Shown: positions 11,895 through 32,728, numbered from the stretch's first letter. The stretch: DNA of 64,000 nt from an uncultured Planctomycetales bacterium (GCA_964474085.1 CAYYRJ010000007.1:8001-72000), one strand, 5' to 3'. Notes: generated by a model not told the origin, from the sequence alone. Numbers and translations are program-made.

Positions 11895-11973
11895 GATTTA
11901 GGAGTTCCTTTTTTCGGCTCAATTGTTTGGCGCCTCTATGGCGCTATTCGCCTTAAAAAGGAACCCCTAAATC
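11895..11973 (-). repeat. Copy 1 of the conserved-core / variable-stem hairpin repeat (core TTTTTCGGCTCAATTGTTTGGCGCCTCTATGGCGCTATTCGCCTTAAAAAG)
   Basis: The 45-nt core is almost identical at 19941-19988 and 32660-32709. The flanking arms gatttaggagttcc / ggaacccctaaatc are complementary apart from one A:C, which is G:U on the minus RNA. It lies in the intergenic region between glnN and the GATase gene. Confidence 0.8.
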
Positions 11974-12001
11974 ATTAAAATTACAATGTCACGTAATAAG
12001 C

Positions 12002-12070
12002 AGGGGCACGACGCATCGTGCCCCTACAACTGCTTCATTCTGTAGGAAACGGTTTCAAACCGTTCCCTAC
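12002..12070 (-). terminator. Two tandem GC-rich hairpins directly downstream of the glnN stop (putative terminator or mRNA 3' stabiliser)
   Basis: The hairpins are GGGGCACGA-cgca-TCGTGCCCC (12003-12024) and GTAGGAAACGGTTT-c-AAACCGTTCCCTAC (12042-12070). The single mismatch is a G:U on the minus RNA. There is no strong U-tract. Confidence 0.35.
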
Positions 12071-12079
12071 AAAAGTTTA

Positions 12080-14224
12080 TTATGCATTCATTAACAACAT
12101 TTCCGCATAACTTGGTAACGGCCAAATATTAGCTGGCACCAAACCTTCCAACTCATCGATCACTTCGCGCAACTTGAGCATACCCGAAAGCGTCTTGGCC
12201 GAATCATGCTTTTCTAAAGCAGCTTCCAGGGCATCCGCCGCTTTTAAAGCTCCATCGATAAGACCAGAAACTTTCTTGACCAGCTTCTTTTGCGTGACGG
12301 ATTTTGCCGACGAGAGAAGCTCTTGATATTCCAACCCGGCCGGAATAAGCTGCGTGCGCGCAATCGTTGCCGCACAACTGCCTTCCAAAGCAATCACCGT
12401 ATCATACGCGTGCTTGTTGATTTCATAACGGGAAGCAACTTCGACTGTCGTTAAAACGCCATGCTTGGCCAAAACATCGATGTTCTTCTTGAGCTTCAAT
12501 GTTTCTAGGGCTTCGGGTGTTGTTTTAAGATTCGGTAAACCACGTTTCTTGGCTTCTGCGTGCCACTCTGCAGTGTAATTGTCGCCGTTAAAAAGAACGC
12601 GTTTATGTTTTTTAATAATCCCCTGCAAAACAGCCTGCAAAGATTTATTAAAATCCAAACCGGCCTTTTTATCCGCTTCCAACTGATCACAGATTTCAGA
12701 AAGCGCCTGAGCGACAATCGTATTTAAAACCATATTGGCCGCCGACGGATTCTGGTTAGAACCGACTGCGCGAAATTCAAACTTAGCTCCCGTAAAAGCA
12801 AACGGCGAGGTCCGATTGCGGTCAGTTGTATCTTTCGCCAAACTCGGCAAAGAGTCTACCCCAACATTAATATCGCCGCCCTGCTTGGACGTTTTAGCTC
12901 CGCCTTTTTCGATTTGCTCGACGATATCAAAAAGCTGTTCGCCTAAAAAGATCGAAACAATCGCCGGTGGCGCTTCGTTGGCCCCCAAGCGATGATCATT
13001 TCCGGCGGTGGCGACTGTCACGCGCAAAAGATCCGCGTACGTATCAACCGCTTTGATAATCGCACAAAGAGTCGTTAAAAACTTTGCATTTTCGTGCGGG
13101 GTTTTTCCCGGATACAACCAATTCTTTCCGTCAGGCCCGACCACAGACCAGTTATTGTGTTTCCCCGAACCATTGATTCCAGCAAAAGGCTTTTCGTGCA
13201 ACAAGCAAACCAAGCCATGCTTATCCGCCAATTGGCGCATCACTTCCATGCACATCATATTGTGATCGACGGCAATGTTAAGATCTTCGTAAATCGGAGC
13301 AATTTCATATTGTGCGGGAGCCACTTCATTATGGCGGGTTTTAGACGGCATCCCTAATTCCCAGAGCGTGCGGTCCAAATCTTCCATAAACGCCATGATC
13401 CGCGGCTTGATAGCGCCAAAATAATGATCTTCTTGCTGTTGATGCTTCGCTGGCTTGCGACCAAAAAGCGTACGGCCGGTCTGAACCAAGTCAAGGCGCA
13501 TTTCATAATGCGCTTTATCGATCAAAAAATATTCCTGTTCCGGTCCGAGCGTGCAATACGCGCGCTTGCCCTTGGTATCAATGCCAAAAAGATTGGCTAA
13601 GCGGCAAATTTGCTTGGAAAGCGCCGTCATCGAACGCAAAAGCGGCGTCTTTTTGTCCAAAGCTTCGCCGTGATAACCGATATAAAATGTCGGAATGCAT
13701 AACGTTGTAGCTTCCGGACCTTCCTTAATAAAAGCAGGAGAGGTCGGATCCCAACCGGTGTAACCGCGCGCTTCAAAGGTTGCGCGAAGTCCGCCCGACG
13801 GAAAAGACGAAGCATCCGGTTCGCCCTGAATTAATTCCTTGCCTCCAAAATTTAAAATAACCCCACCCTCGCCGTCCCACGTAATAAAAGAATCATGCTT
13901 TTCGGCGGTTGTGCCCGTCAACGGCTGAAACCAATGCGTAAAATGTGTCGCGCCCTTGGAAACCGCCCATGTCTTCATGGCCTCGGCAACTTCATCGGCA
14001 ATTTCCGGATCCAGCCGGCCGCCTTCTTTGATCGTCGTGCTTAAGCTCTTATACGCTTTTTCGGAAAGATACTTTCGCATCACCTTAAGCGTAAAAACAT
14101 TTTTTCCAAAATACTCAGGGATTGACTGGCCTTCAACTTTCGTTTCGAGTTCGTTCATCGTGCGTTCTCCTATAAAATTACGAATCGTGGTTTGTGCTTC
14201 CTGGGTTCTGTTGACATTGCTCAT
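12080..14224 (-). CDS. glnN: Glutamine synthetase type III (GlnN, about 700-aa class)
   Basis: The length of about 700 aa and the motifs are characteristic of GSIII (N-terminal EYFGKNVF…KVMRKYL, catalytic region NGSGKHNNWS). An alternative start is the MNELETK ATG at 14156-14158. Confidence 0.85.
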   Translation of the reverse strand: MSNVNRTQEAQTTIRNFIGERTMNELETKVEGQSIPEYFGKNVFTLKVMRKYLSEKAYKSLSTTIKEGGRLDPEIADEVAEAMKTWAVSKGATHFTHWFQPLTGTTAEKHDSFITWDGEGGVILNFGGKELIQGEPDASSFPSGGLRATFEARGYTGWDPTSPAFIKEGPEATTLCIPTFYIGYHGEALDKKTPLLRSMTALSKQICRLANLFGIDTKGKRAYCTLGPEQEYFLIDKAHYEMRLDLVQTGRTLFGRKPAKHQQQEDHYFGAIKPRIMAFMEDLDRTLWELGMPSKTRHNEVAPAQYEIAPIYEDLNIAVDHNMMCMEVMRQLADKHGLVCLLHEKPFAGINGSGKHNNWSVVGPDGKNWLYPGKTPHENAKFLTTLCAIIKAVDTYADLLRVTVATAGNDHRLGANEAPPAIVSIFLGEQLFDIVEQIEKGGAKTSKQGGDINVGVDSLPSLAKDTTDRNRTSPFAFTGAKFEFRAVGSNQNPSAANMVLNTIVAQALSEICDQLEADKKAGLDFNKSLQAVLQGIIKKHKRVLFNGDNYTAEWHAEAKKRGLPNLKTTPEALETLKLKKNIDVLAKHGVLTTVEVASRYEINKHAYDTVIALEGSCAATIARTQLIPAGLEYQELLSSAKSVTQKKLVKKVSGLIDGALKAADALEAALEKHDSAKTLSGMLKLREVIDELEGLVPANIWPLPSYAEMLLMNA

Positions 14225-14263
14225 AAAATTTTCTCCTTTGTCCCGCGCCTGGAATAAGGCGGC

Positions 14264-14292
14264 ATTTTAACAAGCTGCCCGCATAATGTCAA
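14264..14292 (-). promoter_or_regulatory. Sigma-70 consensus promoter for glnN (-35 TTGACA, 17-nt spacer, -10 TAAAAT)
   Basis: On the minus strand: TTGACA at 14287-14292, an exact 17-nt spacer, and TAAAAT at 14264-14269. It is about 40 nt upstream of the glnN ATG, which has an AAAGGAGAAAA Shine-Dalgarno. Confidence 0.5.
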
Positions 14293-14310
14293 TCAAGCTC
14301 TCGACCGCTT

Positions 14311-14353
14311 AAAATGCGACGGGCGGGCGGACTTTAAATCTTATCCACCCGCC
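14311..14353 (-). terminator. Possible weak intrinsic terminator after glnB
   Basis: On the minus RNA, a 10-bp GC-rich stem GGCGGGUGGA / UCCGCCCGCC (one G:U) with a 12-nt loop is followed 5 nt later by AUUUUAA, a short U-tract. Confidence 0.3.
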
Positions 14354-14383
14354 TTTGCCGCCTAAAAACATCGCCAAACAATT

Positions 14384-14725
14384 TTACCCGATTGCGTCCG
14401 GGCCTTCATCGCCAGTACGGATACGGATACAGCGCGGCAATTCAACGACAAAAATCTTTCCGTCGCCGATTTTTCCCGTGCGCGCCCCGCGGATAATCGC
14501 TTTGATCGTTTTGTCAACAAAGTTCTCGTTGACCGCGATTTCAAGCTTAACCTTGCGCAAAAGGTTCCCGGTTTCTTTAACGCCGCGATAGAACTCGTCA
14601 ACACCTTTTTGACGACCGTGTCCCAAAACTTCGCTGACGGTAATCAGATTGACATCTTCTTTATACAATTCTTTTTTGACATCTTCCAACCGATGCGGCT
14701 GGATAATTGCTATGATCAGTTTCAT
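14384..14725 (-). CDS. glnB: Nitrogen regulatory protein P-II (GlnB/GlnK)
   Basis: 112-aa P-II fold with a T-loop region (RYRGVKE…-like, GHGRQKG) and a C-terminal GDGKIFV motif. It lies immediately downstream of amtB, the classic amtB-glnK arrangement. Confidence 0.9.
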
Positions 14726-14771
14726 TTAAGACGCCCTCCTTAAAGATTCACTTAAAAAAGTAAATAACGGT

Positions 14772-16013
14772 TTATTCAAAAATCGTGTACGCGCGTTCAT
14801 GGTGCTGAGAAAGATCCAAGCCCATGACTTCATCTTCGGCAGAAGCCCTGACTCCAACGATAGCGTCCACAATTTTAAAAATAATAAATGTTCCAACGGC
14901 TGACCAAACAACCGTTACCCCAACAGCAGCAAGCTGAATTAAGAATTGCTTAGGGTTTCCATAAAATAACCCGTTAGCGCCCGCTGAATTAACTGTTGTC
15001 GTCGCAAAAACACCCGTTAATAAAGCGCCCCAAATCCCGCCGATCCCATGGACGCCGAAAGCGTCGAGAGAATCGTCATAGCCGAGTTTAGGTTTCAAAT
15101 ATCCGACGGCAAAGAAACACACAACGCTGACCGTCAAACCGATAATAAGCGCACCGGTGGTATCCACAAACCCTGCCGCAGGCGTAACCGCAACCAAGCC
15201 TGCAACCACACCTGTGGCCACACCGAACATCGTCGGCTTGCCGCTAACTAACCATTCTATAATTGCCCAGCTTAAACCCGCTGCAGCAGCAGCCGTATTG
15301 GTTGTAATAAAAGCATTCGCAGCTAAACCATTTGCTGCCAAGGCACTTCCCGCATTAAACCCAAACCAGCCAAACCACAACAGCCCGGCGCCCAAAACAA
15401 CAAAAGGCATATTGTGAATGGCCATCGGCTTATTTTCATAACCTAAACGTTTACCCAACATCAAAGCACACACAAGCGCGGCAACACCGGCGTTGATATG
15501 AACAACCGTTCCGCCGGCAAAATCCAAAGCGCCCCAGGCGCGGACCCAACCGCCGAGCGCCCAAACCATATGACAGATCGGATCATAAACCAACGTTGCC
15601 CACAAAATCATAAATAAGAGAAAAGCCGCAAACTTCATGCGTTCCGCAAAAGCGCCGATAATAAGCGCTGGCGTGATAATCGCAAACATCGCCTGAAAAA
15701 TCATAAACGCCTGATGCGGAATTGTCGCCGCATAATCAGCATTTGCAGCTTGACCCACACCGTTTAACCCAAGCCAACTTAAACCCCCAACAAACGGATT
15801 TCCCGGGCCAAAAGCTAAACTATAACCAAACAAAACCCATTGAATACTGATAACACACATCAACATAAAACATTGCATCAAAATACCTAAAACGTTTTTA
15901 CGACGAACCATACCTCCGTAAAAGAAGGCCAAGCCTGGGGTCATCAAAAGCACAAGCGCACTGCTCGCCAAAACCCAAGCTGTATCTCCCGCGTTAATTG
16001 GAACTGGCTCCAT
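14772..16013 (-). CDS. amtB: Ammonium transporter AmtB/Amt family
   Basis: 11-TM Amt signature (…LLMTPGLAFFYGGMVR…, GAVAERMKF-like, HGIGGIWG). Confidence 0.92.
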   Translation of the reverse strand: MEPVPINAGDTAWVLASSALVLLMTPGLAFFYGGMVRRKNVLGILMQCFMLMCVISIQWVLFGYSLAFGPGNPFVGGLSWLGLNGVGQAANADYAATIPHQAFMIFQAMFAIITPALIIGAFAERMKFAAFLLFMILWATLVYDPICHMVWALGGWVRAWGALDFAGGTVVHINAGVAALVCALMLGKRLGYENKPMAIHNMPFVVLGAGLLWFGWFGFNAGSALAANGLAANAFITTNTAAAAAGLSWAIIEWLVSGKPTMFGVATGVVAGLVAVTPAAGFVDTTGALIIGLTVSVVCFFAVGYLKPKLGYDDSLDAFGVHGIGGIWGALLTGVFATTTVNSAGANGLFYGNPKQFLIQLAAVGVTVVWSAVGTFIIFKIVDAIVGVRASAEDEVMGLDLSQHHERAYTIFE

Positions 16014-16124
16014 GGTACATTCTCCTTTGCTGTGAAACGGTTTACTCTGTGTTTAATCCCTAAATTTGAATTTCCCTGAAGCTATAGGCTGACTCTTAGC
16101 ATTTGATCATTTACGCTTTGGGTC

Positions 16125-16183
16125 AATAAAAAATCCCCTAACCGCCATTTTCATTAATGGTTCGCTAGAGGACATCTTTGCCC
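16125..16183 (-). promoter_or_regulatory. amtB-glnB leader: intrinsic terminator whose apical hairpin, with an upstream hairpin, carries AxxGxx hexaloops (candidate ANTAR dual-hairpin antitermination target)
   Basis: Minus RNA hairpins: P1 is GGGC-AAAGAU-GUCC (16170-16183) and P2 is CCAUU-AAUGAA-AAUGG (16145-16160). Both hexaloops have A at position 1 and G at position 4. The outer stem CCUCUAGC / GGUUAGGGG (16164-16171 and 16135-16143) is followed by AUUUUUUAUU (16125-16134). The P1 3' arm overlaps the terminator 5' arm. A GAF-ANTAR gene lies immediately upstream. Confidence 0.45.
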
Positions 16184-16233
16184 GCACTTCATTTTTTCTG
16201 CCTAAAGACTTCAACGCCTTTAGAGACTTTCAA

Positions 16234-16262
16234 AGTATAGAAGTACACTTTAGTTTTGTCAA
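16234..16262 (-). promoter_or_regulatory. Sigma-70 consensus promoter for amtB-glnB (-35 TTGACA, 17-nt spacer, -10 TATACT)
   Basis: On the minus strand: TTGACA at 16257-16262, a 17-nt spacer, and TATACT at 16234-16239. It lies just downstream of the ANTAR gene stop and about 220 nt upstream of the amtB ATG. Confidence 0.5.
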
Positions 16263-16288
16263 CTATTTTTTAAAAATCGGTTGTTTTT

Positions 16289-17551
16289 TTACTTGCTAAA
16301 CTCGTCCATCAAAATAATCGACTCAGCGATGTCTTTCATCGATTTGCAGGTGTCCATGCTTTTTTTATGGATAAGCCGATGGGCGGCTTCTTCGGTAAGA
16401 TGGTTCATGCGCATCAAAATCCCCTTGGCGCGTTCGACAAGTTTGCGGGTTTCCAAAGCTTCACGGGTTTTGGAAGCTTCTTCGACGAGTTTCGTGTTCT
16501 CAACAGCGACAGCAGCCTGATTAGCCACCATTTGCAGGACGCTGACTTCCTCGCCGGAAAACTGGTGGAATTCCTTGGTATAAACGTTGATGACACCAAT
16601 GGCTTTATCTTTGACAATCATCGGGACAGCGACCATCGAAGAAAGATTTTCTTTGATCGCAAGCTCCCGATAAGCATAACGTTCATCCTGCCGGACATCT
16701 TCGACGACCAGAGGATTTTTGGTTTTGACCACATCACCGACCAAACTATTTTTAACTTTAAGATTGGGCTTTTTAATATATTCTTCACTTAAGCTCTGCG
16801 TGGCCTTGATGCTAAGCTCCTCGCCCTTTTCATCCAAAAGCATGATTGAACAGATCTTCGAATTAAGCATCTCCGCAGTAATAACAACGATAAGATTTAA
16901 AATCTCGTCGAGATAGCGCTGGGAGGTAATCGAATGGCTGACTTTGACCAAACTGTCAAATTGGCTGGCCTTCTGCTTGGTGTCCTCAAAAAGACGCGCA
17001 TGCTCAATGACCCCGCCGACCTGTTTGGCAATCGTATCGATTAAATTCACAGAACTTGTCGAATATTCATGCGGGTTTTTGTGCTGGACATTGATAACGC
17101 CGCTGACTTTTCCCTTATAAATGATCGGAACAGAAAGAAAAGCTTCATAGCGGTCTTCGGGTAAAACATCAAAACCTTTAAAGCGCGGGTCCTGATACGC
17201 ATTTTTTTTGATAGCGACCGGTTTATTGTGTTCGGCGACCCAGCCGGTAATCCCTTCGCCGACGCGCAAATTGATTTTGCCGAGCACTTTTTTGTGCGGC
17301 GTTTTGGAAGCCATCAGGACAAGATTCTTTTTGCCGCGGTCAAAAAGATAAACAAAAATCGAATCGGCTTTCGTCATTTCATTGACGATGCCGACGACTT
17401 CATGCAAAATGCCCGCCAAATCCAAGTCGGAACACGTGATATCTACAATCCGCCGCAAAATCTTGAGCTCTTGCGCACTGGAAATATTAAGCGTAACGCT
17501 TGTCAAAGCTGTTGTATTTTTAACTTTTTTTGTCTGTGCCATGAAAGCCAT
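16289..17551 (-). CDS. GAF-GAF-ANTAR RNA-binding antitermination regulator
   Basis: Two GAF-like domains precede a C-terminal ANTAR domain (ALETRKLVERAKGILMRMNHLTEEAAHRLIHKKSMD…). It sits directly upstream of the promoter and terminator-containing leader of amtB. Confidence 0.75.
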   Translation of the reverse strand: MAFMAQTKKVKNTTALTSVTLNISSAQELKILRRIVDITCSDLDLAGILHEVVGIVNEMTKADSIFVYLFDRGKKNLVLMASKTPHKKVLGKINLRVGEGITGWVAEHNKPVAIKKNAYQDPRFKGFDVLPEDRYEAFLSVPIIYKGKVSGVINVQHKNPHEYSTSSVNLIDTIAKQVGGVIEHARLFEDTKQKASQFDSLVKVSHSITSQRYLDEILNLIVVITAEMLNSKICSIMLLDEKGEELSIKATQSLSEEYIKKPNLKVKNSLVGDVVKTKNPLVVEDVRQDERYAYRELAIKENLSSMVAVPMIVKDKAIGVINVYTKEFHQFSGEEVSVLQMVANQAAVAVENTKLVEEASKTREALETRKLVERAKGILMRMNHLTEEAAHRLIHKKSMDTCKSMKDIAESIILMDEFSK

Positions 17552-17585
17552 TTTAACAGAAAGCGCCTTGTTGCAATGATTATCT

Positions 17586-18776
17586 TCAACTTATAACAAA
17601 CTTATCATTTTCAAGCACGATCGCCATCGCCCCGCCGCCGCCATAACAGATTGCCCCAAGGCCGTATCTTTTATTTTCCGCTTTTAAAGCGTGCGCCAGC
17701 GTAACTAAAATTCGCAACCCGGCTGCGCCTAAAGGATGCCCTAAAGCAATGTCCCCGCCGTAAATATTCATTTTTTGCGTCGCAATATCGAGCTTATCGC
17801 GTGTGTAAATCGCTTGCGCCGAAAATGCCTCACTGACTTCAAAAAGATCAATGTCTTTGCATTTTAAACCGCACGCCCGTAAACATGCCTCTGCGGCAGG
17901 GACCGCCGCCGTAAAGACTTCTTTGGGATTTAAAGCAATCGATGCAAAGCCGACAATACGCGAGAGCGGATGGACTTTTTGGCGTTTCACAAAATCTTTA
18001 CCAGCAACCAAAACAGCAGCTGCCCCGTCGCACGGCAAAGATACATTTCCCGCAGAAAGCGTCCCGTTTTTGCCAAAGGCCGGCGGTAAAATTTTAAAAC
18101 TCTCGAGATTCACGTGCCGACGGATATGTTCATCCGCAAAAAAATTCTTTCCGTCAGACAAAGCGACACCGACGATTTCATTGCTAAAATTTGCACCCGC
18201 AGCTTTGCGATGACTTTCAAAAGCATAGGCATCTTGAGCCGGCCGCGAAATTTTTTCGCGTTTCGCCAAACTTTCGCAAAGCTGTCCCATCAATTGACCG
18301 CTTAAATTGCACCAGAGCCCATCATACATCAAGCTGTCAATCGGCGTACGCTCACTGTATGGCGTTTCCACGTCTTTCGAAAAAAGCAGAGGTGTACGGG
18401 TCGCACTTTCTGCCCCGACAGCGATGATACAGTCTTTGGAACCAAAACAAATCGCTTGCCCTGCAAGAATAAGTGCCTGCAACCCAGAAGCGCAAACCGC
18501 ATTGACCGTATAAGCGGTCGTCTTAAAGTTTAGTCCGCCGCAAAAACTTGCTTGCCGCGCCGGGTTTTGCCCGCTGCCCGCCGAAACAGTATTGCCCAAA
18601 ATTACTTCTGAAATACAATCCGGGTTAAGACGCGTACGCTTTAAGAGGCCCTGAATCACAATGCCACCTAATTGAGGGGCAGAAAAATCTTTTAAACTTT
18701 TAAAGGGACTTGCGACGGGCGTTCTAAGAGCATCAAGAATATAAAGAGGATTTTTATCAAAAGAGCTCTGCGGCAT
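17586..18776 (-). CDS. Acetyl-CoA C-acetyltransferase (thiolase II)
   Basis: Thiolase N- and C-terminal domains are present, with the active-site region NAVCASGLQA and the C-terminal motif GLGAICYGGGGAMAIVLE. Confidence 0.85.
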   Translation of the reverse strand: MPQSSFDKNPLYILDALRTPVASPFKSLKDFSAPQLGGIVIQGLLKRTRLNPDCISEVILGNTVSAGSGQNPARQASFCGGLNFKTTAYTVNAVCASGLQALILAGQAICFGSKDCIIAVGAESATRTPLLFSKDVETPYSERTPIDSLMYDGLWCNLSGQLMGQLCESLAKREKISRPAQDAYAFESHRKAAGANFSNEIVGVALSDGKNFFADEHIRRHVNLESFKILPPAFGKNGTLSAGNVSLPCDGAAAVLVAGKDFVKRQKVHPLSRIVGFASIALNPKEVFTAAVPAAEACLRACGLKCKDIDLFEVSEAFSAQAIYTRDKLDIATQKMNIYGGDIALGHPLGAAGLRILVTLAHALKAENKRYGLGAICYGGGGAMAIVLENDKFVIS

Positions 18777-18784
18777 AAGAAAAT

Positions 18785-19882
18785 TTATAAATTCTCAATA
18801 ATCGCATCCACATCAACGAACTTTTTGACCATTTGCCGCGCTTCACTGATTTTGTCTTTATCTGTTTTTTGTATTTTGCAAACCAGATTGTCGATTTCCC
18901 GGGCGACGGCATACGTTTCTTTGTCGGTCAAAAAAACCGGGATACGGCTTTTTTGTAAAAGTTCCATGATCTTGACATTGGGCATCAGTCCGCCAGTTAG
19001 AATAATTCCCGCAATCTGATCTTTGCTGTCCTGCGTCACCAAATGAGTACTCACCGCAACCAGAATATTGTCCACGCGATCGCCGGAGGTTAAAACAAGC
19101 GTCCCATTGGTCAGATAATTGACCATATTATACGGCTCCATCGCCGCGACAATCGTGTTGCGAACACGTCGGAATAAATATTCCTGGCCGCACAGAACTT
19201 TAAGATTTAAAAATTTCATGATCTGTTCGACCTTCGGATCACACAAAAGCGGATCAAAGGGAATTGCGCCGACTAAGCGCAGACCTTTACGTTTTAACCC
19301 GACAGACACAACTTTTTTGATGCGCTCCATTTTGTCCGGCAGGACTTTATTAAGAATAACCCCGACGACCTCAACTCCACAATTGTCAAAAAGCGCTTTG
19401 TTAAGCATGATTTCATCAATGCTGCGCCCAATGCCGCCTTCGCTGACGATAAGGACCTTGGAACCTAACATTTTTGCGACATCAGCATTTGAAAGATCAA
19501 TGACTGAGCCTACGCCGGCATGGCCTGTTCCTTCGATGATAATGGAATTTTTGTGCTGGGTAAGACTGTTAAACGACGACAAAATACGATTGCGCAAAAC
19601 GTCTTGTTGAGGATTAAAAATATACTGCTCGGTATACCCGTGCCCGATTGTCACCGGACTCATATATTTGAGCTTATTGCGGCAACGGTAAACTTCGCCC
19701 ATCAGATAACTGTCTTTGTCGACATCTGTTTGTCCGACGGTAACCGTCTGCTGGCCGACGGGCTTAAGAAAAGCCGGCTTAAGTCCGCGTTCCTGAAAAA
19801 TTTTGTAAAGTCCCAACGACACCGTGGTCTTACCGGCATTTTGATATATCGAGGAAATAAAAATATTTTTGATTTTTTTCAT
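18785..19882 (-). CDS. P-loop ATPase (CobQ/CobB/MinD/BioD-like) with DRTGG domain, resembling the phosphotransacetylase N-terminal region
   Basis: N-terminal Walker A (SIYQNAGKTTVSLGL) with a BioD-like fold is followed by a DRTGG-like segment (TSGDRVDNILVAV…GIILTGG). Confidence 0.55.
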   Translation of the reverse strand: MKKIKNIFISSIYQNAGKTTVSLGLYKIFQERGLKPAFLKPVGQQTVTVGQTDVDKDSYLMGEVYRCRNKLKYMSPVTIGHGYTEQYIFNPQQDVLRNRILSSFNSLTQHKNSIIIEGTGHAGVGSVIDLSNADVAKMLGSKVLIVSEGGIGRSIDEIMLNKALFDNCGVEVVGVILNKVLPDKMERIKKVVSVGLKRKGLRLVGAIPFDPLLCDPKVEQIMKFLNLKVLCGQEYLFRRVRNTIVAAMEPYNMVNYLTNGTLVLTSGDRVDNILVAVSTHLVTQDSKDQIAGIILTGGLMPNVKIMELLQKSRIPVFLTDKETYAVAREIDNLVCKIQKTDKDKISEARQMVKKFVDVDAIIENL

Positions 19883-19923
19883 CAGATGTTAAAAGATTCT
19901 AACTCTATCCGTACATAATCTTG

Positions 19924-20003
19924 GTTGATGGAAAACCTCTTTTTCGGCTCAATTGTTTGGCGCCTCTATGGCGCTATTCGCCTAAAAGAGGTTTCCCATC
20001 AAC
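19924..20003 (-). repeat. Copy 2 of the conserved-core / variable-stem hairpin repeat
   Basis: Same 45-nt core as copy 1 with a 1-nt indel. The arms gttgatggaaaacctcttt / aaagaggtttcccatcaac are complementary apart from one A:C, which is G:U on the minus RNA. The right arm overlaps the sucD stop codon at 19999-20001. Confidence 0.8.
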
Positions 20004-20865: not shown

Positions 20866-20866
20866 C

Positions 20867-22003: not shown

Positions 22004-22028
22004 AGGAAATAATTTTTATTTATTGTCG

Positions 22029-22057: not shown

Positions 22058-22066
22058 AAGAAAAGA

Positions 22067-23638: not shown

Positions 23639-23664
23639 GCGGCTATCCTAACGCAACTCTTTGT

Positions 23665-24732
23665 TTAGAACCACTTCTTTTTTTTAAAATAAACCACCAT
23701 CCCGACGGAAAGTGCGATCATAAACCCCCAAAGGGCAAAATACGCCCAACTCCATTGCAGCTCCGGCATGACTTTAAAATTCATTCCATAAACTCCAACA
23801 AGGAATGTCAATGGAATAAAAATTGTCGAAAAAATCGTCAATATTTTCATGACTTCATTTAAACGCGTGCTGACAAAAGAAAGATAAATATCCTGCAACC
23901 CGCTTAAAATATCACGAAACGACTCAACGGTGTCAATGACCTGCACGGCATGGTCGTAAAGATCGCGAAAAAAAGGCTCGCTGGTCTTTTCAATGAGGAC
24001 CGATTCACAATGCGCCAATTCAAAAAGAAGCTCGCGAAGCGGCCAAACTTGTTTTCGCAAATAAATCATGTCGCGCTTTAAGTGGTGAATCTGACGAGGA
24101 ACGCTGGTTTTTGGATCCACTAAAAGGATCTCTTCAACCTCTTCGATCTTGTCACCCAATTTTTCTAAAACCAAAAAGTAATGGTCGACAACCGCATCCA
24201 TAAGCGAATAAACCAGATAATCTCCCTTAGCTTTGCGAATGCGCCCTTTACCGTCGCGAATACGCTGGCGGACAACCTCAAACACATCGCGCCCGGCTTC
24301 TTCTTGAAATGAAATGATATAATTGGCTCCTAAAATCAAACTCACCTGTTCGGAGACGACTTCTTCTTTTTCGACGCACGGATAAATCATTTTGAAAACA
24401 ATAAAAATATAGTCCTCAAAATCTTCCATTTTAGGACGTTGATTCGTATTGACGATATCTTCCAGCACCAAGGCATCGATGCCAAAGATAGCACCGATCT
24501 GGGAAATCGTTTCCACATCGTGCAAACCGTCAACATTTATCCAAGTCATCCTCTGGCTATCTTTAGGATGGCTAAGATTTTCTAATTGTGTAATCACGCT
24601 TTCCTGATAATGCAGAGCGTCATATTCAAAAGATGTGATCTTGATATCCGACGAAACTTTTTTCCCAATATGGACCAAAGTCCCGGGCGCAAGCCCTAAC
24701 TTTTTGGAAACTTTCTTGATATAGCGCGACAT
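23665..24732 (-). CDS. corA: Magnesium/cobalt transporter CorA
   Basis: C-terminal two-TM region with the YGMNF signature (GMN motif) and a cytoplasmic N-terminal domain. Confidence 0.88.
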   Translation of the reverse strand: MSRYIKKVSKKLGLAPGTLVHIGKKVSSDIKITSFEYDALHYQESVITQLENLSHPKDSQRMTWINVDGLHDVETISQIGAIFGIDALVLEDIVNTNQRPKMEDFEDYIFIVFKMIYPCVEKEEVVSEQVSLILGANYIISFQEEAGRDVFEVVRQRIRDGKGRIRKAKGDYLVYSLMDAVVDHYFLVLEKLGDKIEEVEEILLVDPKTSVPRQIHHLKRDMIYLRKQVWPLRELLFELAHCESVLIEKTSEPFFRDLYDHAVQVIDTVESFRDILSGLQDIYLSFVSTRLNEVMKILTIFSTIFIPLTFLVGVYGMNFKVMPELQWSWAYFALWGFMIALSVGMVVYFKKKKWF

Positions 24733-24755
24733 CCCTTACCGTCCCTTCCCTAAAA

Positions 24756-26054: not shown

Positions 26055-26625
26055 TTAATAATCCGATTTTTTCTATCGCAATTCTGACGGCGGTATTAAT
26101 AGAAAATTGTTCTATACCTAAATGAGGCTCAATAGTCAAAAGCTGCATTGTGTACTCGCGCATAAGAGGGCTGATGATTTTTCCTTGATCTAAATTCTCA
26201 ACAACCTGTTGGTATTCTTTAGCGCAATACGATTTCATCGTCGGGCAAGTCACCAATTGAGGCTTAAGATATTTGTCCTGTTTAGCCGCATAGCCAAAAA
26301 GCCGGCAAATTAAAGGACGCCACGGATAAACACTGCAGCGACCATTGCCGCTTTTTAAAGGATTAGGCTCATAAAAAACACACACACCGCAACCAGACTC
26401 CCCTATCTTTGAAAGGATCCTTGTCGCGCTCTCATTTTGCCACAGTTGACCGGCCAAAGGAAGGACTTCTAAAACACTACAAAAAATATTGGGATTCTCA
26501 CAGCAGCGGCCGCAACCGCTTGGACATCGCAGATTACTTACGGCTTTAAATTCCTCGATTTTTTGATCGAGCTTTTCATAAAGCCTTAAAACGTCGTCGC
26601 TTGTCTGAGTTAAGTAGGCCGTCAT
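26044..26625 (-). CDS. YkgJ/UPF0153 family zinc- or iron-chelating CxxCxxCC protein
   Basis: The CPSGCGRCCE motif (CxxCxxCC) is the family signature, and additional Cys residues are present (CGVC, C…C). Confidence 0.65.
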   Translation of the reverse strand: MTAYLTQTSDDVLRLYEKLDQKIEEFKAVSNLRCPSGCGRCCENPNIFCSVLEVLPLAGQLWQNESATRILSKIGESGCGVCVFYEPNPLKSGNGRCSVYPWRPLICRLFGYAAKQDKYLKPQLVTCPTMKSYCAKEYQQVVENLDQGKIISPLMREYTMQLLTIEPHLGIEQFSINTAVRIAIEKIGLLNAQ

Positions 26626-26649
26626 GACTATCTTTTAAAAAATATTTTT

Positions 26650-26979
26650 CTACCATTTTTTAAAAACAAAGAATACCGCCACAACCATAAAGAAAAATCC
26701 GACCAGATAATTCCACTTAAGATCTTCTTTTAAATATAAAACCGAAAACACACAAAAAACGACGAGCGTAATGACTTCCTGCATCGTTTTAAGCTGCGCG
26801 GCGCTAAACTGCCCGTGGCCAAAACGATTGGCCGGTACCTGAAAACAATACTCGGCAAAAGCAATCAGCCAACTAATTAAAATCACCTTTAATAAAGGCG
26901 AGCTTTTATATTTTAAATGGCCGTACCAAGCTATCGTCATAAAAACATTGGAAACAATGAGCAAAAGAATTGTCGCCAT
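26650..26979 (-). CDS. Small DMT-superfamily-like membrane protein (DUF486-like, 4 TM)
   Basis: 109 aa with four hydrophobic helices and a size and pattern typical of DUF486/DMT_6. Confidence 0.45.
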   Translation of the reverse strand: MATILLLIVSNVFMTIAWYGHLKYKSSPLLKVILISWLIAFAEYCFQVPANRFGHGQFSAAQLKTMQEVITLVVFCVFSVLYLKEDLKWNYLVGFFFMVVAVFFVFKKW

Positions 26980-26988
26980 ATCAATACT

Positions 26989-27639
26989 TTAGGCTTTATC
27001 GCCAAAGTCCATTTCGTTTTCCGCAATGCCGCTTCGGCCAATTACCTGCGGCCCAATAATTCCGCCGGAGATGACCGCCTTCATCGCCTCGTCGATCGTC
27101 CAGTTCGGGTCGATAGTGTCTTCTTCCTTGACATGCAGCAAAAACCCCGACGTCGGATTCGGAACTGTCGGCAAAAAAAGCTTGATCCATTTCCCATTTC
27201 TGGCGGGGTCCTCGACCTCACCGGTCACAAAACCGATTAGCCACTGGCCTTCTCGGAACCCTTCGACCAGCAAAGCCTTGCGAAAAACCTGTTTCTCCGG
27301 CAAAGAAAACGCCATCGAAACCTGTTTGCCAACCTGATAGGTCGTTTTTAAGATTGGAATCCGCGAGGTGATCCCCTCGATAATCCGAAAAAACCTGCGA
27401 CCAATAACATTGCTGGCCAAAAGGCCCAAAAAATACAAAATGACAAGCACCAGCACAATCCCCAATCCCGGCCCAACAATATGATACCCGGTCCACGACT
27501 CAATGCTGTCTCTGACCCGTCGGTCAACCATCACATAAATAAACTTGATTGCTAAATACGACAAAAACAACGGGATCGAAGCCAGAAGGCCGCGAAACAC
27601 AAAACTCATAAAATGTTCAAGCAATGTTGGTTTTTTCAT
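26989..27639 (-). CDS. DUF502 family membrane protein
   Basis: Two N-terminal TM helices plus the conserved PNPTSGF motif (…LPTVPNPTSGFLLHV…) diagnostic of DUF502. Confidence 0.65.
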   Translation of the reverse strand: MKKPTLLEHFMSFVFRGLLASIPLFLSYLAIKFIYVMVDRRVRDSIESWTGYHIVGPGLGIVLVLVILYFLGLLASNVIGRRFFRIIEGITSRIPILKTTYQVGKQVSMAFSLPEKQVFRKALLVEGFREGQWLIGFVTGEVEDPARNGKWIKLFLPTVPNPTSGFLLHVKEEDTIDPNWTIDEAMKAVISGGIIGPQVIGRSGIAENEMDFGDKA

Positions 27640-27758
27640 AAGCTCCCTTTGGCTAAAAAATTATTTATGTTTCCCGCACAAAACCTTGTTAAAACAAAAC
27701 ACGGTTAAAGCAATCAAAAAACCCCACGAGACAATCAAAAATATCCACCCGCCCGTTG

Positions 27759-29345
27759 TCATAGGATCGCACTCTCTTTTTGTCGATGACGCCAGGCCAC
27801 GCGAATCAGCCCAAGCATCAACAATAGCAACACTATAATCCCGATACGCGCAGAAAGAACATAAATTTTATCTGCCTGCGCAACATTCTTTAACATAAAA
27901 ATCGGACGCCAATCTTGCCAAAACCACACGGCTAAAATAATGAGCAGATACGTCGGCGTCACGTACTTGATAATAAATTTATAAATCCGCGGGACCTTAA
28001 TCATTGACCCCTGATGAAGCAAATCCCAAGACTGATCGATTCCCAGAACCCAGGCAAAAAGAATCGTTTCAATGATCGCAAAGACAATCAAACAAAACGA
28101 CCCGCCCCAAAAATCCATTTCATCAACGATGCCATGCTTTAAAAAGAAAATCGCCGGCTGACAAAGCACAAAAGCAATGCCCGCCAAAAGACCGACTGCT
28201 TTTTTGCGCGTAAACTTAAACTCATCTTCCAAAAAAGCGACAAACGGCTGAGCTAAAGAAACCGAAGAAGTTGCCCCAGCAAGAAACAAAAGAAAAAACC
28301 AACAAAAACTAAAAATTTCGGGCCAAGGCAGATGATTGATCACAAGCGGCATTGTAACAAACCCCAAATTAAAAATCCCCGACTGCGCAATCTGCTGCAT
28401 ATCTGCCGGGCCATAAAAAATAAATGCGACAGGAATAATGATACTTGCCCCTAAAATGACTTCTGCAATTTCATTGGTTGCCGCCGATGTCAATCCAGAC
28501 AAAGCCACGTCATCTTTTTTATTAAGATAACTGGCATAAGTCAAAATAACGCCAATCCCCACACTTAAGGTAAAAAAAATCTGGCCAGCCGCTTCAATCC
28601 AGACTTTCGCTTTTAACAATTGAGAAAAATCCGGGTTCCATAAAAACCCAAAACCCGACGAGACATTCCACTCTGGATGTGCCATGTTCGCTGACCCTAA
28701 GCTCACAACCCGAATAAAAAGCAAAATCCCGCAAATAAACAAAATCGGCAAAGCAATCTTGTTGAGGTTTTCAATTCCTTTGCTAATCCCAAAATAAATA
28801 ACACAAATGTTAACAAGGAAAGTAATTAAGAAAAAAACGTACGCCGTCGTAATCCCCGAAAAATATTGATTGTGCTCAATGCCTTGATAACCGCTTAAGA
28901 AACTCTTCAAAGTCGATTGATCATTGAGAGCACTTAATTTTCCTATCAACGAAAAAAAACTATACCCCAGCGTCCACGACTCGATATACGTGTAATAAAT
29001 AAAAATAAGAAGGGGTCCCAAAATCCCTAAAACGCCTAAATATTTCATGGCGCGGTTATTCGGACGAATACTATGAAAAATCCCCGGCGCTGTTCCATTG
29101 CCCCAGCCGCCACCGTGACGGCCCAAGGTCCACTCAATCCACATTAGCGGGATCCCGATAACCAAAAAGGAAATAAAATATGGAATCATAAACGCCCCGC
29201 CGCCGTTGGCCACAGCCTTGGCAGGAAAGCGTAAAAAATTTCCCAAGCCAATCGCAGAACCAGCGACGGCTAAAATAATACCCAAACGCGAAGACCAGCG
29301 GTCACGCACTCTAGTATGGGAGGCTTTGGATTTAACCTCAGACAT
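27759..29345 (-). CDS. Sodium-dependent transporter, NSS (SNF) family
   Basis: SNF signature at TM1 (RDRWSSRLGIILAVAGSAIGLGNFLRFP), 11-12 TM helices and a conserved GGGAFMIPY motif. Confidence 0.88.
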   Translation of the reverse strand: MSEVKSKASHTRVRDRWSSRLGIILAVAGSAIGLGNFLRFPAKAVANGGGAFMIPYFISFLVIGIPLMWIEWTLGRHGGGWGNGTAPGIFHSIRPNNRAMKYLGVLGILGPLLIFIYYTYIESWTLGYSFFSLIGKLSALNDQSTLKSFLSGYQGIEHNQYFSGITTAYVFFLITFLVNICVIYFGISKGIENLNKIALPILFICGILLFIRVVSLGSANMAHPEWNVSSGFGFLWNPDFSQLLKAKVWIEAAGQIFFTLSVGIGVILTYASYLNKKDDVALSGLTSAATNEIAEVILGASIIIPVAFIFYGPADMQQIAQSGIFNLGFVTMPLVINHLPWPEIFSFCWFFLLFLAGATSSVSLAQPFVAFLEDEFKFTRKKAVGLLAGIAFVLCQPAIFFLKHGIVDEMDFWGGSFCLIVFAIIETILFAWVLGIDQSWDLLHQGSMIKVPRIYKFIIKYVTPTYLLIILAVWFWQDWRPIFMLKNVAQADKIYVLSARIGIIVLLLLMLGLIRVAWRHRQKESAIL

Positions 29346-29365
29346 TGTCGTTTATTTTAAGTAAT

Positions 29366-29415
29366 TGTTAAAAAGGCTGTCGCCCCTTAAAAACAAAAAT
29401 TTACAGAAGCGACAG
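29366..29415 (-). terminator. Hairpin plus U-tract between the small Lys-rich ORF and the NSS transporter gene (terminator or attenuator)
   Basis: On the minus RNA, GGCUGUCGC-(26-nt loop)-GCGACAGCC is followed immediately by UUUUUAAC. It lies 25 nt upstream of the NSS ATG. Confidence 0.4.
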
Positions 29416-29469
29416 CCAAACCAACAGAATTAAGGCAGGAGAATTTTTAAGAACAAAATCCGCGTCAAC

Positions 29470-29565
29470 TTAATGACATCCGCAGGATGAAGACCCACAA
29501 GATGATTTTGCCGCAACTTTTTTCACTGCTTTTTTAACTGGTTTTTTTGCTTTTTTAGTCGCCAT
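29470..29565 (-). CDS. Unlisted 31-aa small ORF encoding the peptide MATKKAKKPVKKAVKKVAAKSSCGSSSCGCH
   Basis: The ATG at 29563-29565 is preceded by AAAAGGAGAAAAAAC (strong Shine-Dalgarno). It is below the 60-aa cut-off of the ORF track. The peptide has 9 Lys in the first 20 residues and a C-terminal CGSSSCGCH. Confidence 0.45.
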   Translation of the reverse strand: MATKKAKKPVKKAVKKVAAKSSCGSSSCGCH

Positions 29566-29620
29566 GTTTTTTCTCCTTTTAAAAAATACAAATCTTGGTA
29601 ACGAAAATTAACAGTGTTGC

Positions 29621-30091
29621 CTAATTTGAAATCGGCGCAGAATCAAGCACTTCAGTCACAGCACTTTGAAGATGCGAAGAAAGCTTTTTCCAGGTGCGTG
29701 CACCAACTTTTCCATCAGCAGTTAAACCGTTTTGTGTCTGAAACTCACGGATAGCTTTTTTGCTCTTAGGCCCGATATTGCCGTCGATCGGACCATTGTA
29801 AAGACCGGCGTTTTTAAGCGCTTGCTGAATATTTTTGTTGGTCGGCTTGTCGCTTGATTCTGCAGGTGTCAGTTCAAGGCCTGAGGTTGGCTCTACAACT
29901 TGTGCAGGGATTGCATTAACAGGCAACGCAACATTGTGCGCTTCAAGCGTGACTGACTGCGGAGCTAAAATTGCATTACCCGCTAAAACCTGCTCGGGCG
30001 GCAAGGACATCGCTTCTTCTTTTTTGGACCCACAACCGACGACGAAAACAAATGACGCAAGAACAAGAACGGATACTTTGAGGCTGTTCAT
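29621..30091 (-). CDS. Lipoprotein with C-terminal peptidoglycan-binding (PG_binding_1) domain
   Basis: Signal peptide with lipobox (VVGC). The C-terminal motif is KNAGLYNGPIDGNIGPKSKKAIREFQTQNGLTADGKVGARTWKKL. Confidence 0.65.
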   Translation of the reverse strand: MNSLKVSVLVLASFVFVVGCGSKKEEAMSLPPEQVLAGNAILAPQSVTLEAHNVALPVNAIPAQVVEPTSGLELTPAESSDKPTNKNIQQALKNAGLYNGPIDGNIGPKSKKAIREFQTQNGLTADGKVGARTWKKLSSHLQSAVTEVLDSAPISN

Positions 30092-30361
30092 CTTAAATCT
30101 CGACTTTCTTTTGCAAAAGAAAAATGCAAAGCGCTACTTACGGTTGAAATTTACTTATCCTAAGTACTAAAAATTTTTATGTCCCTAATAATGGGCTAAT
30201 TCTATCGAAAATATTTTAATTGTCAACTCCTCACAGCCCTATTTGTTAATCAATCAACGGTTTATATCTGGCAAACCTGATTTTTGCACTTTACGATAGT
30301 AAAAAAACTTTCCAATGCTATCATATTGAAAATTAATTTCAAAAGAACGAACAAAAATCCC

Positions 30362-31012
30362 ATGGAAATATTTTTACAATTCATCAGTTTCTTTTTGCAC
30401 TTGGACAAACACATGTTCGAATTTGTCGCCAATTACGGGACATGGACGTATCTGGTTCTTTTTATTATTATCTTTTGCGAAACAGGTTTGGTCGTGACCC
30501 CCTTCTTGCCGGGCGATTCACTGCTTTTTGTAACAGGGACACTCACCGCAAACGGATCGCTAAAACTCGAATTCGCACTCGGACTTTTGTCTATCGCGGC
30601 TATTTTAGGTGACAGCGTCAACTATTGGATTGGCCACTTTATGGCACCCAAAATTTTTCATCCAAAATACCAGCGCATTTTAAAACCCGAATATTTAGAC
30701 CGCACTCAAAAATTCTTTGAAAAATACGGCGGAAAGACAATTATCCTTGCCCGCTTTTTCCCAATCATTCGTACCTTTGCGCCATTTTTGGCAGGCGTAG
30801 GAAAAATGAGCTACCGCAGATTCTTTCTCTATAATGTGATCGGTGGCTTACTTTGGGTTTGCTTGTTTATTTTAGGAGGTTATTTCTTTGGAAATCTTGC
30901 GTTTGTCAAAAAGAATTTTACAGCTGTCATTTTTGCCATTATCTTCATTTCACTTCTGCCAGGTGTCTGGGAATTTTATCAACACAAAAAATTTCCACTG
31001 CGTCAAAAATAA
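30362..31012 (+). CDS. DedA family (VTT/SNARE-associated domain) membrane protein
   Basis: The conserved DedA motif (…VTPFLPGDSLLFVTG…) is present. The likely start is MEIFLQFISFF at 30362, and the track ORF has a 26-codon upstream extension. Confidence 0.8.
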   Translation: MEIFLQFISFFLHLDKHMFEFVANYGTWTYLVLFIIIFCETGLVVTPFLPGDSLLFVTGTLTANGSLKLEFALGLLSIAAILGDSVNYWIGHFMAPKIFHPKYQRILKPEYLDRTQKFFEKYGGKTIILARFFPIIRTFAPFLAGVGKMSYRRFFLYNVIGGLLWVCLFILGGYFFGNLAFVKKNFTAVIFAIIFISLLPGVWEFYQHKKFPLRQK

Positions 31013-31026
31013 ATTTTCAAATAATA

Positions 31027-31458
31027 TTATCTTAAATTTGCAGTGAGTGTTTCAATGTCGAGCTTAGCGATCGCCAGCTCATTGAGCGCGTCTAAAACCT
31101 CAACAACATCCTTAAACCGCGCCGCTTTATCCGCACGCAAAACAACGCCAATCTCAGGGTTTTTCTTTTTGATAACGCTAAGCTTTTCTTTAAGTTCTTT
31201 GCGGGTGATAATTTTGTCGTCTAAAAAAAGAAGCCCTTCATTGTTAATCGTTACATACGCCCTGGTTTGATTTCCACTCTCTAAAGGCTTGGCGCTTTTG
31301 GCTTCCGGCAGCTTGACCTTGAGGGTCGATTGAGACAAAAGCGGCGTTGTCACCATAAAAATGACGAGCAAAACCAAAATGACGTCCGTAAAAGGCGTAA
31401 TATTGATTTCCGAAACCAGACGCGGCTTACGGGATTTTCTAATCGTTTTTATAGACAT
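31027..31458 (-). CDS. exbD: Biopolymer transport protein ExbD/TolR
   Basis: N-terminal motif (EINITPFTDVILVLLVIFMV) with a single TM helix and a periplasmic domain. Confidence 0.85.
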   Translation of the reverse strand: MSIKTIRKSRKPRLVSEINITPFTDVILVLLVIFMVTTPLLSQSTLKVKLPEAKSAKPLESGNQTRAYVTINNEGLLFLDDKIITRKELKEKLSVIKKKNPEIGVVLRADKAARFKDVVEVLDALNELAIAKLDIETLTANLR

Positions 31459-32059
31459 TTAACAAATCCAAAGTCTGCGATGCACAAAGTTCCATGTCGG
31501 TAATAAAATTGTCGATCGTCCGTGAAAAATAGTTATACGCAATGACGGCCGGAACAGCGACGGCTAAACCTGCCGCCGTACAAATAAGCGCCTCGGCAAT
31601 GCCGTTTATGACCACATTGATACCGCCAAAACCGCTGGACGCAATATCTTGAAAAGCGCGCATAATCCCCAAGACCGTTCCAAACAGCCCGATATAAACC
31701 GCGGTGCTGCCGATTGTTCCGACCACACCCGTATAACGCTCAAGCTTGCCGGTTTGAATAATAACTTCCCGCTCCATGGCGTTTGAAATCACAACTTCAT
31801 TATGCCCGTGCAGATTAAGGCCCGTTAAAACAACGCTGGCAAACGCAGCCTGTGTTTTTTGACAAAGTTCAATAGCACTTTTGATATTATTCTTTTCAAT
31901 AGCCTGTGCAATTTGCGTCATAAATTCCAAACGGTCCGTCTTAAGCCTTAAACGATAATACCAAATCCGCTCGACAATAATCGCCAATGAAACGATCGAG
32001 CAAAGAATCAAAAAATACATCGTAAACCCGCCAGCGCGCAACATTTGCCAAAATGTCAT
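31439..32059 (-). CDS. exbB: MotA/TolQ/ExbB proton-channel protein
   Basis: Three TM helices with the conserved C-terminal channel region (…GLFGTVLGIMRAFQDIASSG…). It overlaps exbD by 20 nt. Confidence 0.85.
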   Translation of the reverse strand: MTFWQMLRAGGFTMYFLILCSIVSLAIIVERIWYYRLRLKTDRLEFMTQIAQAIEKNNIKSAIELCQKTQAAFASVVLTGLNLHGHNEVVISNAMEREVIIQTGKLERYTGVVGTIGSTAVYIGLFGTVLGIMRAFQDIASSGFGGINVVINGIAEALICTAAGLAVAVPAVIAYNYFSRTIDNFITDMELCASQTLDLLNVYKND

Positions 32060-32141
32060 CTTGCCTCTCCTGTTTTATATAAACCTTATATTTTGAATAT
32101 GTGTCGTTTTAACACTTTTTGTCTGCAATAGAAACAAAACT

Positions 32142-32516
32142 TTAAAAAAATTCCGCCAAGATCGCGCCAAAACGAAAGACGATAAACCCTGCACAAATCG
32201 TCACGGCAATATTGCCCAAGGCATAAATATAATGCTCTTGTTTGAGAAGATCCGACGTTTCGAGCATCACGCTCGAAAGAGTCGTAAAAGCCCCACAAAA
32301 TCCGGTCATCAAAAGAATGCGATAATTATGGATAACCAGAAGTTTTTTCTCAAAAATAACGTCGAGAAACCCGATGATAAAACATCCTGCCAAATTAACG
32401 GCAAGCGTCCCCCACGGAAAATCAGTCCCTGTTTTATGATAAACAGCGCCCGATAAAATATAGCGGCATACCGTCCCCAAAATCCCGCCGACAACTAAAT
32501 AAATCCACTTTTCCAT
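32142..32516 (-). CDS. crcB: Fluoride ion channel CrcB/FluC
   Basis: 124 aa and four TM helices with characteristic motifs (GGILGTVCRY…, GFCGAFTTLSS). Confidence 0.88.
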   Translation of the reverse strand: MEKWIYLVVGGILGTVCRYILSGAVYHKTGTDFPWGTLAVNLAGCFIIGFLDVIFEKKLLVIHNYRILLMTGFCGAFTTLSSVMLETSDLLKQEHYIYALGNIAVTICAGFIVFRFGAILAEFF

Positions 32517-32638
32517 TTAATTTTTTTAAACGCTTTGTTGAACAATTTTCATGATTATACTCAGGCTTTGAAAAGACACAAAAGATATCTTTAACTTAAT
32601 AGAAACATTCAAATTTCTATTGATTATCATTATTGTTG

Positions 32639-32728
32639 TAAGCTCAGCAAGGCAATCCTTTTTCGGCTCAATTGTTTGGCGCCTCTATGGCGCAATTCGC
32701 CTTAAAAGAATTACCTTGCTGAGCTTAA
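32639..32728 (-). repeat. Copy 3 of the conserved-core / variable-stem hairpin repeat
   Basis: The core has a single T>A substitution. The arms taagctcagcaaggcaatcctttt / aaaagaattaccttgctgagcttaa are complementary apart from two C:A pairs, both G:U on the minus RNA. It lies 10 nt after the macB stop and about 120 nt upstream of crcB. Confidence 0.8.

Follow-up and report, generated by a model that had tools for sequence, protein, structure and literature searches.

A mobile hairpin repeat of uncultured Omnitrophota with an invariant loop and drifting but paired arms

We describe a family of mobile hairpin repeats of ∼90 nt in uncultured Omnitrophota, for which there is no earlier description. 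Three copies lie in a stretch of 64 000 nt labelled as DNA of an uncultured Planctomycetales bacterium (GCA_964474085.1 CAYYRJ010000007.1:8001-72000; in the following ‘the window’, with positions counted from its first letter). The element bears a stem of 20–26 bp around an asymmetric core of 37 nt, within which a helix of 3 bp and a GC hairpin of 5 bp are formed. Its combination of traits is unusual: the loop is invariant, the stem is free in sequence but stays paired, and the strand polarity is defined by the element itself, together with frequent inversion of the loop.

Three hairpin copies in the window

The copies and the conserved core of the first one are located as follows:

11890–11978, minus strand: copy 1, entire hairpin element (left arm 11890–11914, junction C 11915, core 11916–11952, right arm 11953–11978)
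11916–11952, minus strand: conserved core of copy 1; the minus strand reads GGC-GAAUA-GCGCC-AUAGA-GGCGC-CAAACAAUUGA-GCC
19924–20003, minus strand: copy 2, entire hairpin element (left arm 19924–19944, core 19946–19982, right arm 19983–20003)
32639–32727, minus strand: copy 3, entire hairpin element (left arm 32639–32663, core 32665–32701 with A at position 30, right arm 32702–32727)

The original prediction, made from the sequence of the window, had reported three intergenic copies of a 45-nt core at these places. All three are intergenic, and the 32-mer TTCGGCTCAATTGTTTGGCGCCTCTATGGCGC occurs there three times, on the plus strand only and with zero occurrences expected by chance; no fourth copy was detected in the window by the covariance model described below. 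The strictly common core of the three copies is 37 nt long, GGCTCAATTGTTTGGCGCCTCTATGGCGCWATTCGCC, which can be written as GGCTCAATTGTTTGGCGCCTCTATGGCGC[T/A]ATTCGCC. It lies between a T-run and an A-run, with which it amounts to ∼45–50 nt, and further out come arms of 20–26 nt that pair with each other. The single substitution and the single indel noted earlier correspond to T/A at core position 30 and to a length difference in the A-run; in addition, the T-run of copy 1 is one base longer than in the other two copies.

The three copies are the longest hairpins and inverted repeats of the window. Upon folding they give a long hairpin on either strand (z = −7.6 to −9.5 versus dinucleotide shuffles), and the minus-strand RNA fold is more stable by 0.4 to 6.7 kcal/mol. 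The inverted repeat within each copy was thus correctly recognized, but the flanks of different copies are not entirely unrelated as had been stated: the inner 6–8 bp of the stem (CCTTTTT/AAAAAGG) are found family-wide, and a loose outer-stem consensus, GCYGATTTRGAAATCC, occurs in about one third of the family members. Likewise, all stem mismatches are A:C on the plus strand as described before, although their number is five (2 + 1 + 2) rather than four.

Family size and host organisms

A 19-mer scan that covered one genome per species yielded 55 loci, of which 53 are found in five related metagenome-assembled genomes (MAGs) and two are chance matches. Three of the five carrier MAGs are labelled ‘uncultured Planctomycetales’ and two Candidatus Omnitrophota, and close homologues of the sucD gene carry the names Omnitrophica or Omnitrophota; the host taxon of the element is a clade of Candidatus Omnitrophota. 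With a covariance model derived from 52 copies, 62 copies were detected in the loci of the five MAGs and four further ones in one metagenome; a metagenome scan that allowed a variable P3 helix gave 57 matches, only four of them real and the rest chance. The wider count of the core proposed with the original prediction hence amounts to ∼60 more copies in the five Omnitrophota MAGs plus the four of the metagenome. With the same model no element was found in eight syntenic loci (∼118 kb) from related Omnitrophota; two of these loci (L123 and L124) come from element-carrying MAGs.

No part of the window matched Rfam at gathering thresholds, and the core is not assigned to any Rfam family. At permissive E-values only generic long hairpins appeared, namely miRNA precursors with 25 and 21 bits compared to gathering scores of 100 and 77. 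Viral contigs, plasmids and phages yielded no sequence related to the element, and we found no report of the sequence or of Omnitrophota repeats in the literature, in agreement with the earlier impression that this is not a named repeat family.

Copies typically reside in a short intergenic gap, usually 0–40 nt from the upstream stop codon and often inside operons. At locus L008, three copies (182–218, 1592–1628 and 3190–3226) punctuate a pyrR-pyrB-pyrC operon, and two of these contain a private core variant in which TTCCGCGCC replaces TTTGGCGCC. Many MAG and metagenome contigs end within the element (L004, L010, L028, L033, L036, L041, L042, L057 and L058); as a practical effect, it breaks assemblies of Omnitrophota MAGs.

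Invariant core and drifting stem

Divergence was determined for 18 independent orthologous pairs; L056, a duplicate of the window, was tabulated besides. The core (position 30 excluded) diverged by 1.2%, compared to 13.7% for the stems, 12.7% for the 40 nt beyond the stems and 13.2% for the 300-nt flanks. Since the left half of the core is fixed by the scan, the count was repeated on the right half alone, where 5 mismatches were found in 306 positions (1.6%, p ∼1e-11 versus stems or flanks). These values show that sequence is preserved about tenfold better in the core of resident copies than in neutral DNA. Position 30 (11945, 19975 and 32694 in the window) switches between T and A from copy to copy and between orthologues, while the remaining 36 positions hardly ever vary. 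The stem diverges at about the rate of the flanks and is still paired; arm-to-arm conversion would fit this behaviour better than slow pairwise selection.

Degenerate copies exist as well. L014:5392-5477 is a core remnant without arms, and L013 and L018 contain a truncated copy. In the latter two (L013:5981-6002 and L018:4913-4933), the left arm and the initial ∼21 nt of the core remain as a half element, which is joined to the 3′ end of a cytochrome bd subunit I gene; the stop codon of this gene falls inside the core remnant.

Structure and covariation

The consensus fold consists of a long stem P1, a 3-bp helix P2 (GGC/GCC), a 5-bp helix P3 (GCGCC/GGCGC) and a 5-nt loop. We evaluated a model-guided alignment of 58 copies, in which the pair counts of the covariance model are limited to the inner 12 bp; statistics for the outer stem were taken from an anchored alignment, and a MAFFT alignment of the outer stems lost the pairing register. 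Paired cells accounted for 98.3% compared to 82.4% in shuffles, and 170 cells had changed on both sides versus 35 in shuffles and 22–61 with slid partners. In P1, all 12 modelled pairs had changed on both sides with 97.6% of cells paired, which was matched by none of 500 shuffles and not by the slid controls. P1 therefore displays compensatory change beyond relatedness, the generic test of a structured single strand. This overwhelming covariation bears out one of two explanations offered by the original prediction, a structured family with compensatory P1 stems; the accompanying assumption that the minus strand is chosen because it is the gene strand does not hold, as discussed below.

The inner 6–8 bp of the stem are conserved throughout the family, and beyond the inner 8 bp the arms hold 0.1–0.5 bits per position. 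P2 and P3 are almost invariant, with one variant that covaries in P3: in L044:7890-7982, P3 reads GTCCCT/AGGGAC and pairing is kept. The same variant destroys the alternative hairpin on which a switch-like refolding of the core had been based, and this argues against such a switch.

The whole hairpin is gained and lost

The mobile unit is shown to be the whole hairpin, which is gained and lost together, because empty orthologous sites contain no hairpin at all and near-identical stems are found at unrelated loci. For example, L018 has the empty site ATATGT-CTT-ACAAAG where L013 contains an insert of 89 nt (TTAGCC...GGCTAA). The window itself holds an empty site:

48878–48892, no strand assigned: empty site orthologous to the filled site L053:885-967 of a related MAG; element and hairpin are absent

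The sucD junction is without hairpin in eight relatives (L118–L125), and the element-carrying MAGs CAZNNZ (L124) and JAYRHV (L123) have an ATGA overlap of sucD with the following gene. Non-orthologous copies agree at 14–16 of 16 stem positions (consensus TGCCGATTTGGAAATCC); as the stems recur in near-identical form at unrelated loci, they must travel with the core.

These data leave hardly any room for the other explanation of the original prediction, a 45-nt element that inserts into the loops of pre-existing host hairpins. It was suggested by the three window stems, which look unrelated, and L032:1431-1565 contains a different loop of 75 nt within stems that resemble those of L002. However, a bare hairpin, which had been named as the hallmark of an empty site, was present at none of the ten empty orthologous sites examined, and the stems follow a consensus common to the family and are found again at unrelated loci.

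Two sites are occupied by other sequences in addition. At the sucD junction the window carries the element and 41 extra nt (19883–19998), L118 and L122 carry an open reading frame (ORF) of 111 amino acids and L125 a PhdYeFM/PIN toxin–antitoxin pair; the junction appears to be an insertion hot spot. L032:1431-1565 is a different hairpin of 135 nt with 22-bp stems, located where L002, L014 and L046 hold the core element. A fragment of it is also found at L046:4802-4830, its stems resemble the L002 copy and both of its two stem mismatches are A:C on one strand, while similarity of the 75-nt loop to the core was not significant (p = 0.16).

Inversion of the core

In 10 of the 18 orthologous pairs the core is reverse-complemented between collinear flanks, as seen in the alignment of L011 and L038. 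Such flips are rarer in the closest pairs and common above ∼10% non-coding divergence. Stem changes from one Watson–Crick pair to another are found where the core has flipped and, among the unflipped orthologous pairs, in a single very divergent one, whereas the seven closer unflipped pairs show changes in one arm only and no such double changes. The resulting numbers of one-arm and both-arm changes (7/0 versus 11/10) correspond to p ∼0.03 in a Fisher test that was estimated by hand, not computed with a tool. This suggests that copying from arm to arm accompanies the flips.

Strand bias of stem mismatches

Among 52 copies, the stem mismatches on the core-plus strand comprise 63 A:C versus 9 G:T (p = 4e-11), in addition to 23 transversions. 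Mismatches that arose after speciation, polarised with an orthologue, give the same picture (29:4) and lie in both arms. Neighbouring genes are antisense to the core-plus strand for 24 copies and sense for 16 (p = 0.27), and when split by gene strand the ratios of A:C to G:T are alike, 28:4 and 20:2. We found no association of core orientation with local GC skew as a measure of the replication strand (25 versus 29). The tolerated mismatches are hence those that remain G:T or G:U wobbles on the core-minus strand, in either gene direction.

From the window it had been concluded that selection acts on the minus-strand RNA, minus being the strand of all neighbouring genes. The G:U-type bias on the core-minus strand is confirmed by the family (63 versus 9); the gene strand as its reason is not, given the similar ratios of 20:2 and 28:4 and the opposite orientation of ∼40% of the copies. 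Because the bias is equal in both gene orientations and GC skew is unrelated, the match of core-minus strand and gene strand in the window is a coincidence. Pairing within one strand, that of core-minus polarity, is favoured, whether this strand is transcribed as mRNA or not.

Genomic context of the window copies

Copy 1 (98.5 bits with the covariance model, minus strand; orthologous copy L031) is flanked by genes for a type III glutamine synthetase (stop 12080) and a glutamine amidotransferase (start 11854). Two ordinary short hairpins (12003–12027 and 12038–12074) are located upstream of it, directly after the glutamine synthetase stop. The stem of copy 2 (87.2 bits; orthologous copy L020, site empty in eight relatives) includes the sucD stop codon at 19999–20001, as had been noted before, and the next gene starts at 19882. 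Copy 3 (90.8 bits; orthologous copies L017 and L056) lies between a macB-like gene (stop 32738) and crcB (start 32516). GC skew of the plus strand is −0.10 to −0.17 over the whole window (1–64000), and nearly all long ORFs in the inspected part (9000–35000) are on the minus strand.

Comparison with known repeats and hairpin systems

The element belongs with the bacterial interspersed palindromic repeats; it works most like a REPIN and fails the tests for REP sequences. In common with the REP and REPIN sequences of Pseudomonas and Enterobacteria, it is a short non-coding intergenic repeat with a long hairpin that lies mostly downstream of genes in both orientations, occurs in tens to hundreds of copies per genome and is kept at orthologous sites. 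Compensatory changes across the hairpin are likewise seen in REPINs, which have been proposed to move as single-stranded DNA (ssDNA) (PMC3116915), with a strand-specific Y1 transposase as proposed mobiliser of REPs and REPINs (PMC3116915; PMC3733652). Unlike a REPIN, which has conserved REPs near the base and a free middle, the Omnitrophota element has an invariant apical loop and a mostly free stem, the inverse of the REP/REPIN layout of conserved arms and variable spacer. A further mark of REPs is a GTAG or CGTC tag that stays unpaired at one palindrome end (PMC3733652); near the stem base we found GTAG/CTAC in 3 and CGTC/GACG in 5 of 52 copies, with a chance expectation of ∼0.21 per copy. 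A cognate RAYT (Y1 transposase) gene, which REPs usually flank in their genomes, was not found in ∼0.5 Mb of loci. The arms are inverted repeats like those of a MITE (a miniature transposable element with inverted repeats) derived from an insertion sequence (IS), but there is no duplication in the one close filled/empty pair, no related plasmid, phage or viral-contig sequence and no transposase nearby. By these features the core is not placed inside a known IS or MITE, an outcome that had been considered for it.

Other hairpin systems share single traits. Correia/NEMIS of Neisseria, ERIC, and RIP/BIME-1 of E. coli are intergenic repeats of 100–150 bp with inverted arms and a central non-palindromic segment; in Correia and RIP this segment is bound by IHF. 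They share transcripts with adjacent genes, and their RNA forms long hairpins; the sequence of their arms is conserved and Correia makes a TA duplication. In the Omnitrophota element, in contrast, the arms drift freely, no duplication was seen and the constraint is strand-specific. Integron attC sites, each of which follows a gene, conserve the structure of the stem and not its sequence, and a single DNA strand of one polarity is recognised in its folded form; they have conserved R and L boxes at the stem base, a variable tip, no conserved loop and are arranged in cassette arrays of one orientation next to an integrase. An attC site (RYYYAAC/GTTRRRY boxes) is ruled out by the mixed orientation, the housekeeping neighbours and the stem ends TTAR...YTAA. 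Flip-flop loops, such as the minute inversions of chloroplast spacers and the flip/flop telomeres of parvoviruses, have an asymmetric loop between short inverted repeats that is found in both orientations at one site, but they are not members of a repeat family that is dispersed over a bacterial chromosome and conserved in sequence. An intrinsic terminator with GC-rich stem, small loop and U tract is ruled out as well: the loop spans 37–45 nt and copies occur also inside operons. In accordance with the original prediction, none of the three window sites was classed as terminator-like, and a U/T tract is absent from all of them.

Discussion

We tentatively favour the view that the element is a REPIN/MITE-like non-autonomous repeat whose core is read as a folded single strand, likelier DNA than mRNA, by a putative trans-acting protein. 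The selected form would be the folded single strand of core-minus polarity, and ssDNA would be the likelier form because the mismatch bias ignores the direction of transcription. The asymmetric apical core may serve as recognition module for the putative protein, for which a strand-specific ssDNA enzyme of the HUH/Y1 type (RAYT or IS200/IS605-like) is the most plausible candidate; such a protein would also mobilise the element. By analogy, the HUH/Y1 enzymes of REPIN–RAYT or IS200/IS605 systems offer the best precedent. Recombination or template switching between the arms could flip the loop and help the arms to stay complementary.

Several observations weigh against this view. With regard to a partner gene, neither an IS200-like tblastn match (with IS200 TnpA as query) nor a Y1 HUH motif was found in the ∼0.5 Mb of loci, and Pfam searches with nine ORFs beside or between elements returned housekeeping genes only and no transposase nearby. 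L013/L018, the sole close filled/empty pair that defines the ends, lacks both a target duplication and a clean junction. ssDNA and RNA are not separable by sequence, and on the minus strand the internal loops rich in purines and the tandem G-A beside P2 would suit RNA too. The link of flips to compensated changes is confounded with divergence time, and the orientation calls rest on metagenome assemblies. Finally, gene conversion among copies could contribute to core conservation; all four copies of one organism have a private core variant.

A function as RNA seems unlikely to us, although part of the evidence points in this direction. The transcript hairpin would then act as an intercistronic processing or stability signal, with the loop bound by a protein or RNase, or the copies would represent small RNAs with variable P1. 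In either case activity would reside in the minus-strand RNA, and inverting the loop would switch it on or off. A duplex of 20–26 bp has the size of an RNase III substrate. The G:U-type bias, the more stable minus-strand RNA fold and the sites right after stop codons and inside operons such as pyrR-pyrB-pyrC are consistent with an RNA, and REPs have often been proposed to act as RNA (PMC3733652). However, ∼40% of the copies place the core-plus strand in the mRNA, yet their core is equally conserved and their wobble bias is again that of the minus strand (20:2); nor is orientation relative to genes significantly skewed (24 versus 16, p = 0.27). Flips happen about as seldom as a few substitutions and so do not provide a fast switch, and terminator features and an Rfam match are lacking. 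A riboswitch or ribozyme reading was rejected.

It is somewhat less likely again that the element is a purely selfish MITE with unconstrained resident copies, in which the core looks conserved because the copies are young or homogenised by gene conversion and the arms are complementary through quasipalindrome template switching alone. Presence or absence in close relatives, the many copies with consensus-like stems, the lineage-specific core variant common to four copies of one organism and the decayed or truncated copies L014:5392-5477 and L013:5981-6002 would agree with it. Against it stand the 0–3 core changes in copies common to species whose flanks differ by 13–25% and the small number of intermediate decayed cores, although the covariance model can detect them; moreover, template switching alone predicts no mismatch bias tied to core polarity. 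Still less probable is a protein-binding unit of double-stranded DNA in the manner of E. coli RIP/BIME-1 or Neisseria Correia, with the core as a site for an IHF/HU-like or dimeric protein between inverted arms. Its orientation-independent function would match the random orientation observed, the core contains the inverted repeat GCGCC-N5-GGCGC, and TCAATTGTTTG within it would fit the IHF core consensus, TCAANNNNTTR. Yet this consensus derives from Proteobacteria, and duplex binding accounts neither for the pairing of the arms nor for the strand-specific wobble bias, and leaves the P3 variant with new sequence and kept pairing unexplained.

A bolder version of the favoured ssDNA mechanism, which we regard as improbable, is that a core-specific enzyme maintains a dispersed chromosomal hairpin: one strand would be nicked or melted at the loop, and fold-back or template-switch synthesis would re-copy an arm and flip the loop. 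If this were true, an enzyme-maintained hairpin would be a chromosomal analogue of the rolling-hairpin flip-flop, in which the stem shows compensatory evolution without selection on each pair.

Strong covariation and a G:U bias are here uncoupled from the direction of transcription, so that such signatures alone are no proof of an RNA. While the known bacterial repeats REP, REPIN, Correia and ERIC conserve their arms, the Omnitrophota element conserves its loop, and three constraints are cleanly split in it: the loop is invariant, the stem has only to pair, and the polarity is set by the element and not by its context. If a partner enzyme exists, it would represent a new activity that recognises hairpins, from an uncultured phylum that has hardly been studied.

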